Shown: positions 2,343 through 51,745, numbered from the stretch's first letter. The stretch: 57,287 bases of DNA from an uncultured Candidatus Peribacteria bacterium (GCA_964513975.1 CAZEON010000001.1:1-57287), one strand, 5' to 3'. The notes: generated from the letters alone by a model not told the origin. Numbers and translations are program-made.

Positions 2343-2394
2343 TTGTGTTTTTTTATCACCGCCTTCTTCCTTTCACTTTTTCTTCAACCAAAAA

Positions 2395-2458
2395 TACGTA
2401 TTCGAATACGTATTCGAATACGTACTTAAAGATTTGATTACGTAATCGATTACGTAAT
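2395..2458. repeat. Composite palindromic element: TACGTATTCGAATACGTATTCGAATACGTACTTAA plus the perfect 22-bp palindrome ATTACGTAATCGATTACGTAAT
   Basis: Read directly. It lies between convergent gene ends. The first part recurs at 47601-47640 and 51536-51570. Confidence 0.85.
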
Positions 2459-2469
2459 TAACGAAAGCT

Positions 2470-9767: not shown

Positions 9768-11138
9768 ATGAGAAACATTTCTATAATTCGCCCGATGAAG
9801 GAATTTAAAGTGCGAAAAATCGAACAGAAACGATCGCGCAGTAAATATAAAGCCTGGAGAAAACTAACCCGTATTTTTGGACGAAAGGGGGCGATTGGGA
9901 TTATGGCTGTGATTGGTCTGGGGATTATTTTTTGGGGAGGATCGGCGGTAATTGATTCTGGATTTTTTGTAGAAACAACGCGTCAGATTTTTTCATTTGG
10001 TCCACTCGATAAAGATAAAAATGGACACACTAATATTCTCCTCTTGGGAGTAGCGGGAGAAGGGGCTGAGGGAGGAAACCTGTCTGATTCTATTATGGTG
10101 GTGTCAGTCAATCCGAGCACGCCATCGGTTTCAATGTTGAGTTTACCACGAGATTTATTCCTTTCTTCTCGAATTGGAGATCGAAAAGTGAATGAGATTT
10201 ACGCAGCAGCTCGATATAAACAAGGAAATCGTCGGGGACTTGAGATTATAAAAGACGCAGTATCAGAATTCACCGGCATGCCGATTCATTATGGAGCGGT
10301 GATTAATTTCAGAGTTTTTGCAGAAGTGATTGATGAAATGGGAGGGCTTGATATTTTTGTTCCCGAAGCGATTGAAGATCCGTTTTATCCAGATGTTGAT
10401 TATGGATATCAAACATTTGTTGTGCGCAAAGGATTCCAACATTTCGATGGGGATACAGCGCTCAAATACGCGCGAAGTCGAAAAACATCGTCTGATTATG
10501 ACCGAGCAAAACGACAACAAGATATTATTCTCGCGATTCGGCAGAAAGCAGAAAACATGAGTTTGCTAACAGACTTTGGGAAGCTCGGAGAATTCTTTCA
10601 ACTCTATAGAAAAAACGTGAATACAGACATGGGGTTGACACAGATGATCGCACTTGCAAAAGTAGGCTTGGGAATTGATTACGGAAACGTAGTTTCAGCG
10701 GTGCTCAATGATGATCCGACACAAATGGGAGGATTTCTCTATACGCCTGCGAAAGAGTTTTACGGAGGGCAATTTGTTCTGCTTCCAGAGGATTTGAAAG
10801 ACACACAACTTTTTATGGATTTAGTATTGATTCACCCAGAGATTCTGCTCGAGAATACACAGATTTCTGTGCTCAACGGATCAATGACATCAGGGCTTGC
10901 TTCTCGTATGGCAATTCGGCTTCGACGTCTTGGATTTCATATAATTGATGTAGGAAATTATAAGTCAGATCGTCCAGTGTTTCGTACATTTTTGCGTGAT
11001 TACACGGGGGGCAAGGATATCAAAACAAAGAAAATTATTGAGCGTGTGTTTGATGTAAACCACACAGAAGTTATCTCCGTAGAAGAACAAGATCCGAATA
11101 ACTTGATCGACTTGCAAGTGATTTTGGGAACGAACTAG
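9768..11138 (+). CDS. LytR-CpsA-Psr (LCP) family cell-envelope phosphotransferase with a LytR_C domain
   Basis: N-terminal transmembrane helix, then NILLLGVAG...NLSDSIMVVSVN...LSLPRDL and the C-terminal ISVLNGSMTSGLAS...LRRLGF. The start was trimmed out of the repeat tract. Confidence 0.82.
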   Translation: MRNISIIRPMKEFKVRKIEQKRSRSKYKAWRKLTRIFGRKGAIGIMAVIGLGIIFWGGSAVIDSGFFVETTRQIFSFGPLDKDKNGHTNILLLGVAGEGAEGGNLSDSIMVVSVNPSTPSVSMLSLPRDLFLSSRIGDRKVNEIYAAARYKQGNRRGLEIIKDAVSEFTGMPIHYGAVINFRVFAEVIDEMGGLDIFVPEAIEDPFYPDVDYGYQTFVVRKGFQHFDGDTALKYARSRKTSSDYDRAKRQQDIILAIRQKAENMSLLTDFGKLGEFFQLYRKNVNTDMGLTQMIALAKVGLGIDYGNVVSAVLNDDPTQMGGFLYTPAKEFYGGQFVLLPEDLKDTQLFMDLVLIHPEILLENTQISVLNGSMTSGLASRMAIRLRRLGFHIIDVGNYKSDRPVFRTFLRDYTGGKDIKTKKIIERVFDVNHTEVISVEEQDPNNLIDLQVILGTN

Positions 11139-11139
11139 G

Positions 11140-11220
11140 GAATTTTCAATTTTCAATTTCCCATTTTCAAATGAAAGTGTTTTTTTTAAATTGCAAATTG
11201 ACAATTGGCAATTGAAAATG
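11140..11220. repeat. Short tandem AT-rich tracts ((AATTTTC)n and CAATTG-based units)
   Basis: Read directly: gaattttcaattttcaatttcccattttcaaatg ... aaattgcaaattgacaattggcaattgaaaatg. Confidence 0.75.
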
Positions 11221-47600: not shown

Positions 47601-47640
47601 TTAAGTACGTATTCGAATACGTATTCGTGTACGTACTTAA
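47601..47640. repeat. TACGTA/TTCGAA composite palindrome, TTAAGTACGTATTCGAATACGTATTCGTGTACGTACTTAA
   Basis: The outer 11-nt arms are exact inverted repeats, and the inner ACGTATTCGAATACGT is a perfect 16-nt palindrome. It ends 9 nt before the AbrB-like ATG. Confidence 0.85.
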
Positions 47641-47649
47641 CAAAATACC

Positions 47650-47869
47650 ATGGCACGTCCAAGAACAGCGTCAGAACCGGTTCGTAAGCTTACGAGAGTT
47701 GCGGGAAGTAGCTACTATGTCACCATTCCTTTGGATTATATTAGGCCATCGGCTCTGAGGAAAGCGAGGAATGCTCAGGCTCGAAGAAGAATTGGGGTGG
47801 AGGGAACGGCAGAAGGTGGTGGTGAAGAAAAGAGGGAAGAAGTTGATTATTGAGGATTGGGAAGGGTGA
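47650..47869 (+). pseudogene. AbrB/SpoVT-type (antitoxin-like) gene, copy A, frame-disrupted by a 43-nt insertion
   Basis: The N-terminal half MARPRTASEPVRKLTRVAGSSYYVTIPLDYIR is in frame 0. The C-terminal half ELGWRERQKVVVKKRGKKLIIEDWEG is in frame +1. The two halves are separated by 47746-47788. Confidence 0.7.
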
Positions 47870-48142
47870 GAAATGTAAAATAAATAAAAAATTTCCTATT
47901 TGGAGTTCTCACGATCCTTCTTTATAATTTTGCATACATGGTGCCAATTTGCACAGTTTCATTGGTTTCAAGCCATTCTGTGATTTGAAAAATGAAAAAA
48001 GAAAACACAATAATTTTGTTTAATGAAAAACAAGTCCGTCGGATTTGGGATGAAAGCAAGGAGCAGTGGTATTTCTCAATTATTGATGTGATAGAAATCC
48101 TAACAGATTCACGCATTCCAAAAAGATATTGGAGTGACTTAA

Positions 48143-49272
48143 GGAAACCCTGATAAAAAAAGAAAAAAGAGTAAAATAGGGACATGAAACAATTCACCTT
48201 ATTGGAAACAGCGACGAATGGACGTCGAGTGAGAGCAGATAAATTTTTGGAAGAGATGGACAAAGCCATCCCTTGGGGAAATTTTTTGGGATTAATTTGT
48301 CCAAAATATTACAAGAAGAAAGATAATCGCGGACGAAAACGAGCAGATGTGGAAACACTTTTGAGAATATATTTTTTGCAGCAATGGTTCAATTTGGGTG
48401 ATTTATCAGCAGAAGAAATGGTGCACGACAGGCTCAGTTTTCGACGATTTATAAGTTTGGATATTTGTGAAACAAGTCTTGATGAAACAACTATTTGTAA
48501 GTTTCGACATTTTTTAGAAGACCATGAATTAACCGAGAAAATGTTTGAGAAAGTAAATAATATTTTGGAAGAAAAAAACTTAATGATACGAGATGGAACA
48601 TGTGTCGATGCAACAATAATAGAAGCATCTGGCTCAACAAAAAATAAAAAGAATGAACGAGATTTAGAAATGAGTTCGACAAGGAAGGGAATGAATTATC
48701 GATTTGGAATGAAAGTGCACACAGGAGTTGATGCAAAATCAAAACTAATTCACACAATGAAAGTAACAACAGCAAGCATTCATGATTCACAAGTTTTTGA
48801 TGAATGTTTACATAGAGAAGAACAAGCGGTTTTTGCTGACAAAGCATTCGTTTCCGCAGACAAAAAACGGAAATTTAGAGCAGAAGGAAAATATTGGGGT
48901 GTGCAAGAGAAAGCTGTTCGTGGGAAAAAACTCTCATCATCTCAAAAAAAGAGAAACAAAAAAACGGGATCTGTTCGTGCTGGTGTTGAGCATCCATATT
49001 TAATGATCAAACATCACTGGGGACACAAAAAAGTCCGATATAAAGGACTTGAAAAAAACACAGTTCAATTCTTTTCGTTGTGTTTTTTAGCAAATCTACA
49101 TCGAGTACGGTTTGCTCTCGCAAAAGTTTAAAAACTTTTGCAGGAGAAGTGTGTCTAAATTCCCCAAGATAATCTAAAAAAGAGCGAGAAATCGCTCAAA
49201 AGACTGCTTTCTCTTAAAAAATAAAATGATTTATGAAATAAACCCTGATAAACCTAATTTATCAGGGTTTCC
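48143..49272 (+). mobile_element. IS5-family insertion sequence (1130 bp) with 15-bp perfect terminal inverted repeats and a TTAA target duplication
   Basis: The left inverted repeat GGAAACCCTGATAAA is at 48143-48157, and the right one TTTATCAGGGTTTCC at 49258-49272. TTAA occurs at 48139-48142 and 49273-49276. An internal copy of the left repeat at 49240-49252 forms a 13-bp hairpin with the right repeat. Confidence 0.9.
48184..49131 (+). CDS. IS5-family DDE transposase (InsH-like N-terminal domain)
   Basis: 315 aa. The N-terminus has the DUF772-like ...LLRIYFLQQWFNLGDLSAEEMVHDRLSFRRF. The C-terminus is the DDE_Tnp_1 type (DATIIEA ... ADKAF ... VEHPY). Confidence 0.88.
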   Translation: MKQFTLLETATNGRRVRADKFLEEMDKAIPWGNFLGLICPKYYKKKDNRGRKRADVETLLRIYFLQQWFNLGDLSAEEMVHDRLSFRRFISLDICETSLDETTICKFRHFLEDHELTEKMFEKVNNILEEKNLMIRDGTCVDATIIEASGSTKNKKNERDLEMSSTRKGMNYRFGMKVHTGVDAKSKLIHTMKVTTASIHDSQVFDECLHREEQAVFADKAFVSADKKRKFRAEGKYWGVQEKAVRGKKLSSSQKKRNKKTGSVRAGVEHPYLMIKHHWGHKKVRYKGLEKNTVQFFSLCFLANLHRVRFALAKV

Positions 49273-49951
49273 TTAAAAAGTAAATTAGAAAAGGAAGGGA
49301 GTGAAGTGTACGAAAAAATCGTACGGTTGAAAATGCTTGCGATTGATGGCAAAAATAGAGAAACGGATTGTTTTTCTACAGAAGATTTACTTCGTCTAAT
49401 TCAATCAATCCCTTCTCCAAAAGCAGAGCCGTTTAAATTATGGTTAGCACGGGTGGGGTATGAGCGAATTGAGGAAACGGAAGATCCAGAATTAGTTTTT
49501 AATCGGGCGATGAAGACATATCTTCAAAAAGGATATTCGAAAGAATGGATCAATCAGCGTCTCAAAAGTATTGAGGTACGAAAGGAGCTGACGGATGAAT
49601 GGCAGTTGAGAGGGGTTCAGGCGGGGATGGAATATGCGATTCTTACGGATGAGATTACCAAGGCGTGGGCGAACAAAAGCGTCAAAGATTACAAAAAATT
49701 CAAAGGGCTTCAGAAGGAGGGGTTGCGTGATAATATGACGAATCTTGAATTGGTTCTTAATATGTTGGCAGAGGTGTCTACAACTGCTATTTCCCAAAAG
49801 AAATACCCGGAAGGACTGGAAGCCAATAAGCGCATGGCGCGCAAAGGAGGTGGTGTTGCAAAGAAGGCAAGAATAGAGATTGAGGTGCAGACGGGAGAAG
49901 ATGTCCTGTCCGAGAAAGGGGTTCAGAAGAGGATATAGGGGAAAATCCTAT

Positions 49952-50237
49952 TCAGAGCCGGTTCGCAAGCTTGAATGAGTTGCAGGAAGGAGCTACTATG
50001 TCACCATTCCTTTGGATTATATTAGGCCATCGGCTCTGCTTTCGAGAGCCTCCCCTCGGGGTCTGAGCTCGGGGTCGAAGACGACCCTCGTGGAGAGGAG
50101 GAAAGCGAGGAATGCTCACTTCGAGTGGTGACCTCAGTGGAACCAGGCTCGAAGAAGAATTGGGGTGGAGGGAACGGCAGAAGGTGGTGGTGAAGAAAAG
50201 AGGGAAGAAGTTGATTATTGAGGATTGGGAAGGGTGA
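49952..50237 (+). pseudogene. AbrB-like gene remnant, copy B (5'-truncated, with a 130-nt insertion at the same codon as copy A)
   Basis: It aligns with copy A from SEPVRKL onward. The insertion at 50027-50156 equals the copy A insertion plus extra blocks of 60 nt and 27 nt. There is no start codon, and a TGA lies in frame. Confidence 0.7.
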
Positions 50238-50272
50238 GAGGGAAAAGAGGCTCGTGCTAGACACCTTACAGA

Positions 50273-51307
50273 CTAGCTAAAGATAGAATAAGTGACCCCT
50301 TTTCCGACTCCGTGTTTCTGAATTTTTTTCATTCGCACTAAATCTTGAAGATCTTTTTTAAGAGTTGGACGCTTAAATTGTGGTAAATGATCGTGGATTT
50401 GACCAATAGAAAGTTCTTCTTTTTCTAAAACCCCCAATATCAAATTTTTTCTTCCATCCATATTTAATTTAGTAGTTATGAAATAAGTAGATTGTTTTTT
50501 ATTTGTGATTAAATCGTAGACCAAGGTCATTGTTCCCAAAAGTTCTTCAGCAATGAAAAAGGAAAAAGAATTAAGATTATTTGTTTGATCAATCTTCTCA
50601 AGTTCTAAGAGGTATTTTCTTCTGTTTTCGTTTCTAATAACACATGGAGGGTATCCATCTTGCATAAGAATCAAGTTCATTAGTAATCGTGACATACGAC
50701 CATTCCCATCATCGAAAGGGTGAATACTGACAAATCGATAGTGAAAAATACTTGCGCGCTCTATCGCAGAAAGTAACTGTGTTTTTTTTGAATAATACCA
50801 GGTTAATAATTTTTCCATCTCTATTTGAACCTGCTCAGGTTCAGCATAGTGATGAATTTTTCCAGAAACAGTTAAAACATGATTTGGACGAATTTTATAT
50901 CTTCCAATATTAATCGGTTTTTTTATTAAACTCCCGCCGGCTCCTTTAACATATATATGATCAATACCTTTAAGCAAAAGTCCGTGAAGCGATTTAATAA
51001 AATGTTCAGTAATCTCTTGTTTCTTTTGTACAATATTATCTAAAACCTCAATAGCTTCAGCGTGATTTTGAGCTTCTAAAAACTCTTTCAGTGACCTCCC
51101 CTCAGAAGTGAGACCTTCCTGAAGAAAGAATGCGGTTTCTCCTAGGGTAAGCGTATTTCCCTCAATAGCGTTTGAGTTATAGGTCCATTCGATTCGCAGT
51201 CGATCTTGAATAGCTCGATTTAAACTGTCATCAAATGGTTTATGAGCTCCAATTTTTTCCTGAAGCCTCGTAATTTGATCGAAAAGGTTTTGAAAAGAAG
51301 TTTTCAT
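50273..51307 (-). CDS. Fic-family protein with a C-terminal winged-helix domain, auto-inhibited class
   Basis: Active site HPFDDGNGRMSRLL, inhibitory motif SNAIEG, and C-terminal ...KKIQKHGVGKGVTYSI. Confidence 0.88.
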   Translation of the reverse strand: MKTSFQNLFDQITRLQEKIGAHKPFDDSLNRAIQDRLRIEWTYNSNAIEGNTLTLGETAFFLQEGLTSEGRSLKEFLEAQNHAEAIEVLDNIVQKKQEITEHFIKSLHGLLLKGIDHIYVKGAGGSLIKKPINIGRYKIRPNHVLTVSGKIHHYAEPEQVQIEMEKLLTWYYSKKTQLLSAIERASIFHYRFVSIHPFDDGNGRMSRLLMNLILMQDGYPPCVIRNENRRKYLLELEKIDQTNNLNSFSFFIAEELLGTMTLVYDLITNKKQSTYFITTKLNMDGRKNLILGVLEKEELSIGQIHDHLPQFKRPTLKKDLQDLVRMKKIQKHGVGKGVTYSIFS

Positions 51308-51311
51308 TTTA

Positions 51312-51378
51312 TGGATATTTTCATTCTTATTATATCCATAAATATCCAGAAGTCAACAATTATATCCATAAATATCCA
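51312..51378. promoter_or_regulatory. Phased TATCCA repeats upstream of the second Fic gene (two 20-nt direct repeats ATTATATCCATAAATATCCA plus one inverted TGGATA)
   Basis: TATCCA occurs at 51333, 51343, 51363 and 51373, a spacing of 10/20/10 nt. TGGATA is at 51312-51317, next to the start codon. Confidence 0.5.
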
Positions 51379-51535
51379 TAAAATTATGAATATAAATACC
51401 AACTATTTTAACCTTCCGCCGAAATTCCCCGCCCGTAAGGGCGAGGGCTGGAGAGAATCCAGAATCTTTTAAATACAAACCCCCTAAATCCCCCTTATCA
51501 GGGGGGAGGAAAATACTTTTTATGGTACAATCATC

Positions 51536-51745
51536 TACGTATTCGAATACGTATTCGTGTACGTACTTAATAAAACATCATAGAACGTCCAAAGACAGTG
51601 TCAGAAACGGTTCGTAAGCTCGAATGAGTTGCAGGAAGTCACTATTTCTTTGGACTTTATTCGAGAATTGGGGTGGAGGGAACGGTAGAAGGTGGTGGTG
51701 AAGAAAAGAGGGAAGAAGTTGATTATTGAGGATTGGGAAGGGTGA
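51536..51745 (+). pseudogene. TACGTA palindrome plus AbrB-like gene remnant, copy C (no insertion, ATG to ATA, premature TAG)
   Basis: The palindrome is at 51536-51570. The coding remnant reads ...VTISLDFIRELGWRER*KVVVKKRGKKLIIEDWEG, showing the uninterrupted junction. Confidence 0.7.

Follow-up and report, generated by a model that had tools for sequence, protein, structure and literature searches.

We analysed a 57,287-nt stretch of DNA from an uncultured Candidatus Peribacteria bacterium (the window; plain coordinates count from its first nucleotide), in which three copies of a small AbrB/SpoVT-like gene, here called A, B and C, lie on the plus strand between positions 47601 and 51745. In two of them the gene is split by an insert at the same codon. 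We conclude that the insert is probably a non-autonomous hairpin repeat with a unit of 43 nt, that the genes it splits are decaying at the level of DNA, and that the codon was filled on two separate occasions. The window lies on contig C1 of the source genome (G000; 1.2 Mb, 40% GC, 81% complete); C numbers denote contigs, G001, G002, G003, G008 and G020 are related genomes, and L numbers are loci in other assemblies. Because the genome is incomplete, donor copies may be missing from it.

Copy A consists of an N-terminal half of 32 codons with an ATG and no stop (MARPRTASEPVRKLTRVAGSSYYVTIPLDYIR; 47650..47745), a 43-nt insert CCATCGG...GAAGAA (47746..47788) that can be drawn as a 10-bp imperfect hairpin with a 14-nt loop, and a C-terminal half of 26 codons plus stop (ELGWRERQKVVVKKRGKKLIIEDWEG*; 47789..47869), which the insert shifts into the +1 frame. 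It is preceded by a TACGTA/TTCGAA composite palindrome (47601..47640), its presumed operator/promoter. With the insert taken out, the restored junction would read ...GATTATATTAGG|GAATTGGGG... and the protein ...DYIR|ELGW.... The N-half matches an uninterrupted counterpart in G003 at 88 of 96 nt, with mostly synonymous differences, and the C-half agrees with those of copies B (81/81) and C (80/81).

Copy B is a composite. Its 5′-truncated N-half remnant (49952..50026) has neither palindrome nor start and carries an in-frame TGA (49976-49978); the first 39 nt resemble copy C, with the TGA common to both, and the last 36 nt equal copy A exactly. Between this remnant and the C-half (50157..50237) stands an insert of 130 nt (50027..50156), which alignment resolves into 12 + 60 + 18 + 27 + 13 nt. 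The pieces of 12, 18 and 13 nt (core positions 1-12, 13-30 and 31-43) repeat the copy A insert letter for letter, and they are separated by block 1, a GC-rich hairpin module of 60 nt (50039..50098, its boundary ambiguous by 1 nt), and by block 2 (50117..50143), 27 nt long, with a 2-nt CA repeat on its flanks and identical in a further gene copy on contig C27. Copy C has a palindrome (51536..51570) and a gene remnant (51580..51745) with an uninterrupted junction, ATTCGA|GAATTG, at 51664/51665, but also ATA at the start position (51580), a TGA at 51625, an 11-nt deletion and a TAG at 51686.

An earlier note on this DNA had placed inserts of 43 and 130 nt at one codon with the same boundaries, described the larger as the smaller plus blocks of 60 and 27 nt, and read copy C as uninterrupted but lacking its ATG and carrying a TAG. 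Alignment bore this out throughout, the boundaries being the same in A, B and the C27 copy, and it added the TGA and the deletion to the lesions of copy C. The note's picture of three palindrome-gene modules holds for A and C, but not for B, which has no TACGTA palindrome. The string GAAAGCGAGGAATG, which it had assigned to the extra blocks, lies in the 43-nt core instead. The arrangement is not an assembly artefact, since A, B and C recur in two independent assemblies (L053 and L054; 99.83% identity over 10.2 kb, gap-free) and the C27 locus in two others (L043 and L045).

The source genome holds six copies of the gene, three of them outside the window. The copy at C3:29337-29510, adjoining a cold-shock gene, is intact, and that at C2:50602-50775 is uninterrupted with ATA at its start position. 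At C27:5021-5255, a 70-nt insert (core plus block 2) occupies the same codon, with a TAA in the N-half and, again, ATA at the start position. A survey of 60 related genomes yielded 14 homologues in nine of them. The earlier note had proposed aligning such homologues, and all 14 proved uninterrupted. The G003 copy is 92-94% identical to the copy A flanks and has an empty site, TATATTCGG^GAATTGGGG; at L047-L052 the uninterrupted gene lies just 3′ of aroA (aroA-crcB-AbrB), placed as copy A is. The copy at G001:C29 lies 5′ of the same glycosyltransferase gene as the C27 copy and has an empty site as well (ATTCGA^GAATTC). These empty syntenic sites indicate that A and C27 are two old paralogues, interrupted in this lineage only.

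We then compared substitutions inside and outside the inserts. Between B and C27 there was no difference in 70 nt of insert, whereas the flanks differed at 35 of 156 positions (Fisher P=1.2×10−6), and the identity ended within 0-5 nt of the insert ends. The identity of the inserts despite diverged flanks, together with the empty orthologous sites, argues for at least two fillings of the site within this lineage, apparently separate events in two paralogue lineages older than the sister-species split. A and B do not add to this count. They show eight differences in the first 39 nt and then none in 160 nt (P=1.2×10−6), being identical for 36 nt 5′ and 83 nt 3′ of the insert, and these identical flanks mark them not as independent hits but as parts of a recent conversion or duplication tract. 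A and C differ at 16 of 80 positions 5′ of the junction and at 1 of 81 positions 3′ of it (P=6×10−5). Since C matches both A and B far better on the 3′ side (80/81) than on the 5′ side (64/80), the insertion point is a border of recombination tracts in the cluster.

Our initial idea was a single ancient insertion in an ancestor, spread by gene duplication and followed by ordinary pseudogene decay, in which the site would have been used once only. The identity of A and B around the insert fits duplication for that pair, and the core sequences are all identical. However, the locus of the C27 copy is old and separate, and its counterpart in G001 is uninterrupted, as are the copy A counterparts in G003 and at the aroA-linked loci; the B and C27 inserts are identical within diverged flanks; and copy C, whose 3′ half is closest to those of A and B, is free of the insert. 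We dropped the idea on the empty syntenic sites in G001, G003 and L047-L052 and now regard it as very improbable.

Sequences of the inserts also occur elsewhere in the genome. The 43-nt unit is found, with the same ends, in an intergenic position between convergent genes at C16:5753-5797. A covariance model (R1), built from three copies of the unit, gave three matches in G001 and a single one in G002, all of them occupying loops of TGTCATCCCGGAAT-type hairpin repeats. It also picked up diverged 53-nt relatives, six of them in G020 and three in G008, which represent two other genera. An empty host hairpin is present at C35:1647-1685 (...CCCTCTGG^GATTCCGGG...). In three clean comparisons of empty and filled sites, exactly CCATCGG...GAAGAR was inserted at YGG^GAWT or CGA^GAAT, with no target base duplicated or lost. 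Over all contexts seen, the junction is (A/C/T)G(G/A)^GA(A/T)T, from which the C16 site deviates. All unit copies are singletons, and free-standing ones vary: the G001 C3 copy has 2 differences and the C16 copy about 9. When the whole collection was scanned for a 21-nt core pattern, it was found in this organism and one genus-mate only, besides a chance match in an unrelated Brevibacterium sequence; the inserts had no match in Rfam, either at the gathering threshold or at E up to 10.

Both blocks exist as modules outside the gene as well. Block 1 has relatives at C26:13863-13916 (53/54 nt), C32:10512, C4:30304, C7:13427 and C17:5735, all of them between open reading frames (ORFs) of 70 aa or more, and block 2 has a 32-nt exact match within another intergenic hairpin repeat (G001:C3:72567-72598). 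The B insert has, for its first ~90 nt, a diverged intergenic homologue at C4:30303-30363, in which block 1 sits at the identical point inside the core. The 43-, 70- and 130-nt forms differ by whole modules and by no substitution, so module gain or loss must be fast relative to point mutation. From their sequences, the length variants appear to be optional modules of a repeat family, loss being as likely as gain, and the multiple-of-3 lengths of the blocks carry no visible meaning.

According to the earlier note, a small structured element had repeatedly been targeted to, or had grown at, this site. A structured repeat is indeed present outside the gene as well, and the codon was filled more than once, although this follows from C27 and not from the dependent pair of A and B. 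Growth at the site is not required, because a core with block 1 stands at C4:30303-30363 and the blocks occur as modules elsewhere. The note had also called the blocks hairpin-forming. By eye they are (GGGTCG-AAGA-CGACCC, in addition to the 10-bp stem of the core), but the inserts folded no better than dinucleotide shuffles (z=−0.2 to −0.65) and are thus not thermodynamically exceptional.

We propose that the unit belongs to a small family dispersed among this genus of Peribacteria and genera close to it, and that it enters DNA as a discrete piece with exact ends and without target-site duplication. Its 3n+1 length means that a gene receiving it is split by a frameshift. The effect would be on the DNA level only, the interrupted copies being pseudogenes or on the way to becoming so, with nothing to restore the protein; further lesions are present in B (TGA), C27 (TAA and ATA) and C (TGA, TAG and deletion). 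The two lineages filled separately would be those of the aroA-linked copy A and of the glycosyltransferase-linked C27 copy. Later, A, B and C would have been partly homogenised by ectopic gene conversion or duplication with tract borders at the insertion point, while two optional hairpin modules, drawn from the nested hairpin-repeat population of the genome, would have been gained or lost much faster than point mutations accumulated.

For the second filling, re-insertion targeted by sequence or structure through a hypothetical trans-acting enzyme has not quite an even chance in our judgement; the exact ends, the lack of target duplication and of co-conversion, and the similar junctions across contexts speak for it. 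Copying of the insert alone between paralogues after a break or nick at the site is a serious candidate too, if somewhat short of probable, favoured by the use of the same codon and by the gene conversion demonstrated in the cluster. Something else altogether is unlikely.

Several observations weigh against the proposed reading as a whole. No mobilising enzyme was found: none of the ten matches to PF01797 (Y1 transposase) in G000 adjoins a unit copy, G020 has six related copies and no Y1 match, and G003 has Y1 matches and no copy. About four independent insertion contexts are available only, so the target rule is weak, and C16 fits it poorly. The sequence TTCGRGAATT occurs at 22 sites, of which the 19 outside AbrB genes are all empty, and the longer ATTCGRGAATT, with few sites, is empty at seven, four of them outside AbrB genes. 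Local alignment of the AbrB site with the loop-closing region of the hairpin that usually hosts the unit, within the sequences of this genome, gave scores in the top 1.5-13% of genome windows, which is not significant. Copying of the insert alone between flanks that are 69-85% identical, with no flank base co-converted, would be unusual for RecA-type recombination. Finally, copy A is otherwise intact, and a rescue of A alone is conceivable.

Two more specific ideas were tried and rejected: a link to Y1 or RAYT enzymes, whose genes are present but neither adjacent to nor co-distributed with the unit, and mimicry of the hairpin-loop host by the AbrB target, where the similarity was not significant.

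A bolder form of the targeting idea would make the 43-nt unit, which has no ORF, a homing-like element. A hypothetical trans-acting recombinase or nuclease would place it at ATTCGR^GAATT of AbrB genes and in hairpin loops, without target duplication or co-conversion of the flanks; diverged paralogues would be hit independently, and the unit would seed recombination tracts at its borders. We consider this doubtful, though clearly ahead of the explanations that follow.

It is scarcely probable that the insert is neutralised at expression, with copy A still making a full AbrB-like protein by bypass, +1 frameshifting or RNA excision and ligation. Copy A does keep its ATG and two stop-free halves. 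Bypass could run from a take-off AGG (47743-47745) to a landing AGG (47777-47779), giving ...DYIR-LEE-ELGW...; the matched AGG is in the +1 frame, GAGGA stands 6 nt 5′ of AGG, and the codon before the insert is AGG in A and B as against CGG or CGA at empty sites. However, the AGG/AGG pair is confined to A and B, C27 having CGA at the take-off position; take-off would be followed by CCA rather than by a stop; and two earlier AGG (47758 and 47767) would catch a scanning tRNA. Bypass of the gene 60 or byp type is characterised by matched take-off and landing codons, a stop or hungry codon next to the take-off codon, which itself lies within a stem, no early landing triplet in the gap, and a host ORF that is otherwise intact. 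A +1 shift could occur at CGA-AGA-AGA in A or at TGG-TGA-C in B and C27, where it would bring both copies back in frame; yet at neither sequence can the P-site codon re-pair in +1, and the ORF upstream is broken in B and C27, whereas frameshifting of the prfB type takes an intact ORF, a P-site codon that re-pairs beside a slow codon or stop, and a Shine-Dalgarno stimulator further upstream. As to excision, the insert has no Rfam match, 43 nt is far below the size of self-splicing introns, and the RtcB ligase was not found in the 81%-complete genome. B and C27 have N-half stops and no usable start, so two of the three carriers cannot benefit and rescue could matter for A only. Moreover, the unit measures 43 nt in non-coding places too, which argues against its 3n+1 length being an adaptation to the gene. 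RNA removal and +1 recoding had already been rated less likely by the earlier note, in agreement with the N-half stops and with the absence of any known slippery, take-off or landing architecture.

We see only a slim chance that the insert has turned the gene into a functional split gene, in which GAGGA-N9-ATG, supplied by the insert in frame with the C-half, would allow two beta-alpha-beta halves to be made as separate, assembling peptides (67 or 32 aa in A; a C-half peptide of 41 aa in B and C27). An ATG-started ORF does enter the C-half in all three carriers, the 27-nt block keeps the frame, and 9 of the 12 C-half differences between C27 and A are synonymous. Since one unit is common to all three carriers, however, this is a single observation, a stop-free block of a multiple of 3 has a chance of about 0.2, and the excess of synonymous changes would equally fit divergence before insertion. 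The N-half partner is destroyed in B and C27, and we know of no precedent for half an AbrB domain made as a separate chain.

Maintenance of the insert by selection for a role in cis, as an RNA processing site, a terminator or a protein-binding hairpin, is highly unlikely: the inserts are 100% identical across three carriers while parts of the flanks are 69-89% identical, but free-standing copies vary, the fold is not above shuffles, no U-tract follows the insert, the carriers are decaying genes, and modules are present or absent without pattern.

The gene that is split is predicted to encode a small stand-alone regulator of the AbrB/SpoVT fold. The uninterrupted protein has 58 aa (homologues, 57-63 aa). 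Against the hidden Markov model PF04014 (MazE_antitoxin, SpoVT/AbrB; cut-off 24.7), the intact C3 copy scored 20.3 bits and the insert-free copy A 22.9 bits; a precomputed PF04014 match was listed for 5 of 24 homologues. A PDB search by sequence gave nothing significant, and a profile search reached AbrB at E=0.2-0.3 only. An AlphaFold2 model based on 24 homologues (pLDDT 72) contains strands (E) and a helix (H) at E15-17, E21-23, H28-34, E42-47 and E50-55. This order, beta-beta-alpha-beta-beta, is that of the 'swapped-hairpin' half-barrel of SpoVT/AbrB, and the best Foldseek matches were MazE, AbrB-N, SpoVT and VapB (probability 0.85-0.99, TM 0.5-0.68, E 0.16-0.9). In the model, the insertion point follows Arg-32, within the central helix that separates the two beta-hairpins. 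Traits of MazE/VapB antitoxins were absent: there is no common downstream partner among the loci and no C-terminal toxin-binding tail. The neighbouring genes vary by locus (csp, glycosyltransferase, aroA/crcB, Bro-N, RhuM-like), and this lack of a constant neighbour favours a stand-alone regulator over an antitoxin.

The TACGTA-TTCGAA palindrome (35-40 nt) stands 5′ of every full-length homologue in the genus. It also occurs without an AbrB gene at window positions 2392-2461 and at C11:12021-12064, C20:6330-6364 and C32:10819-10859 and 11134-11174, the two on C32 lying inside a 315-nt tandem repeat. Presence 5′ of all full-length copies and alone elsewhere is as expected for an operator with a small regulon, and the AbrB-free palindromes look like further operators of the same regulator family. 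A partial palindrome at C27:12683-12707 lies within a coding frame (…MKYVIEYVLKELPEE…) and is probably a chance or coding-constrained match.

Four gene copies have ATA in place of ATG (window 51580-51582, C2:50602, C27:~5021 and G003:C33, the last at position 1196 of L003). Apart from the ATA, the copies in G003 and C2 are intact; most of their differences from relatives are synonymous, and neither offers another in-frame start. In the G003 copy a TAA lies four codons upstream. Judging from these sequences, translation in this genus may start at ATA codons.

Two observations concern the surroundings of copies A and B. The Bro-N gene 3′ of copy A is split by an IS5-family element (48139-49276), whose inverted ends read GGAAACCCTGATAAA and which shows a TTAA duplication. 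At L055 and L056, copy A (to 47871) is joined straight to the sequence 3′ of copy B (from 50144, Fic gene), omitting 2.37 kb with the IS5 element, the Bro-N gene and the copy B N-half. Window positions 47776-47871 and 50144-50239 are identical, forming a 96-nt repeat, and the shorter form is either a real recombination deletion across this repeat or an assembler collapse.

Short repeats occupy 520 intervals in G000, and 15% of them lie inside ORFs of 150 aa or more, which make up 82% of the genome. A ~150-nt unit has ~19 copies adjoining Y1 genes (examples of repeats and Y1 genes are at C2:28346-28926, C12:16066-16508 and C10:9068-9316), a GAACAAGGGGTTTAAACCCCTTGTTC hairpin has ~32 copies, and TGTCATYCCGG...CCGGRATGACA hairpins are numerous, some of these repeats being nested in one another. 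By sequence, the Y1 matches are putatively IS200/IS605- or RAYT-like. A leader-like repeat, GCAGGTTCAG...CCTGCTCTCGAGAGCCTC...AGAGGAAC, precedes small ORFs of one family, whose products begin with MRSKTPFNT or MRNRTPFNT (C26:13780-14000, C4:40960-41120, C20:560-720, C7:13380-13563 and C10:4480-4550), and the block 1 hairpin is an optional insert in some of its copies.

Genomes of the Candidate Phyla Radiation (CPR) are usually called streamlined, yet the Peribacteria genome studied here, at 1.2 Mb, contains small nested hairpin repeats by the hundred, together with about ten Y1 genes. In the paper reporting the genome of the related Ca. Peribacter riflensis (PMC4736985), we came across no description of repeats of this kind. 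The AbrB case provides rare pairs of sites before and after insertion that define one repeat unit to the base. It also shows that regulators can be inactivated by units of this sort, and that these can delimit gene-conversion tracts. If the recurrence at one codon reflects targeting, it would imply a so far unknown integration mechanism for very small DNA, and the homing-like reading, if true, would give CPR bacteria a new class of site-specific mobile DNA, one of extremely small size. If the recurrence is not targeting, the case is one of tidy, ordinary decay by a selfish repeat in an accessory island.

Among known systems, the unit resembles REP/REPIN elements with their RAYT transposases and the bacterial interspersed mosaic elements (BIMEs) of E. 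coli in being a short, imperfect, non-coding palindrome that is dispersed, mostly extragenic and vertically persistent across related species, that forms mosaics with other short motifs and that duplicates no target; G000 is also rich in Y1 transposase genes. Unlike REP/REPIN, the unit has 1-6 copies per genome, no GTAG-type head, and singletons instead of inverted doublets. REP/REPIN elements are mobilised by RAYT (Y1 HUH) transposases (Bertels & Rainey 2011, PMC3116915; PMC3337134), whereas no Y1 gene is flanked by our unit, its copies on C1, C16 and C27 lie away from all ten G000 Y1 matches, G020 has the unit but no Y1 match, and the unit sits inside a gene.

Rickettsia palindromic elements (RPEs), enterobacterial repetitive intergenic consensus (ERIC) sequences and Correia elements are likewise small palindromic repeats that occur in a reduced genome and inside protein-coding genes. 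RPEs and the ERIC copies within genes keep the reading frame and contain no stop, so the host protein survives with an extra peptide (PMC2229807; PMC10969869). In contrast to RPEs, our unit has 3n+1 lengths (43, 70 and 130 nt), breaks the frame, is 2-3 times shorter and lacks the TA target duplication; read in frame 0, it runs into an out-of-frame stop (A) or into the TGA in block 2 (B and C27). Nor does it have the features of miniature inverted-repeat transposable elements, as there is no target duplication and its ends pair imperfectly as a hairpin stem. BLAST searches with the unit ends retrieved no insertion sequence with the same termini. The palindrome-associated transposable elements (PATEs) related to IS200/IS605 carry two terminal hairpins and insert, without target duplication, on the 3′ side of a fixed target of four or five nucleotides. 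The unit is like them in the absence of target duplication, the dependence on hairpin DNA, the orientation-specific insertion and the presence of Y1 transposases in the genome, but it has one hairpin rather than two, and its flanks (AGG, CGG or CGA, or AATTC, GAATC or CACTT on the other strand) resemble one another only loosely and give no firm rule.

The mobile GC clusters or 'byps' of yeast mitochondria and the T4 gene 60 cassette share with the unit a short, GC-rich, ORF-less hairpin insert in coding sequence of an AT-rich genome, at the same codon in diverged hosts. Byps and the gene 60 insert are skipped by the ribosome, and their host genes are intact and essential (bioRxiv 10.1101/2022.08.31.505936; PMC5009743); here, the defining bypass signals are missing and most carriers have further lesions. 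We regard the element as a new family of a known kind, with a homing-like recurrence at one codon and with modular length variants.

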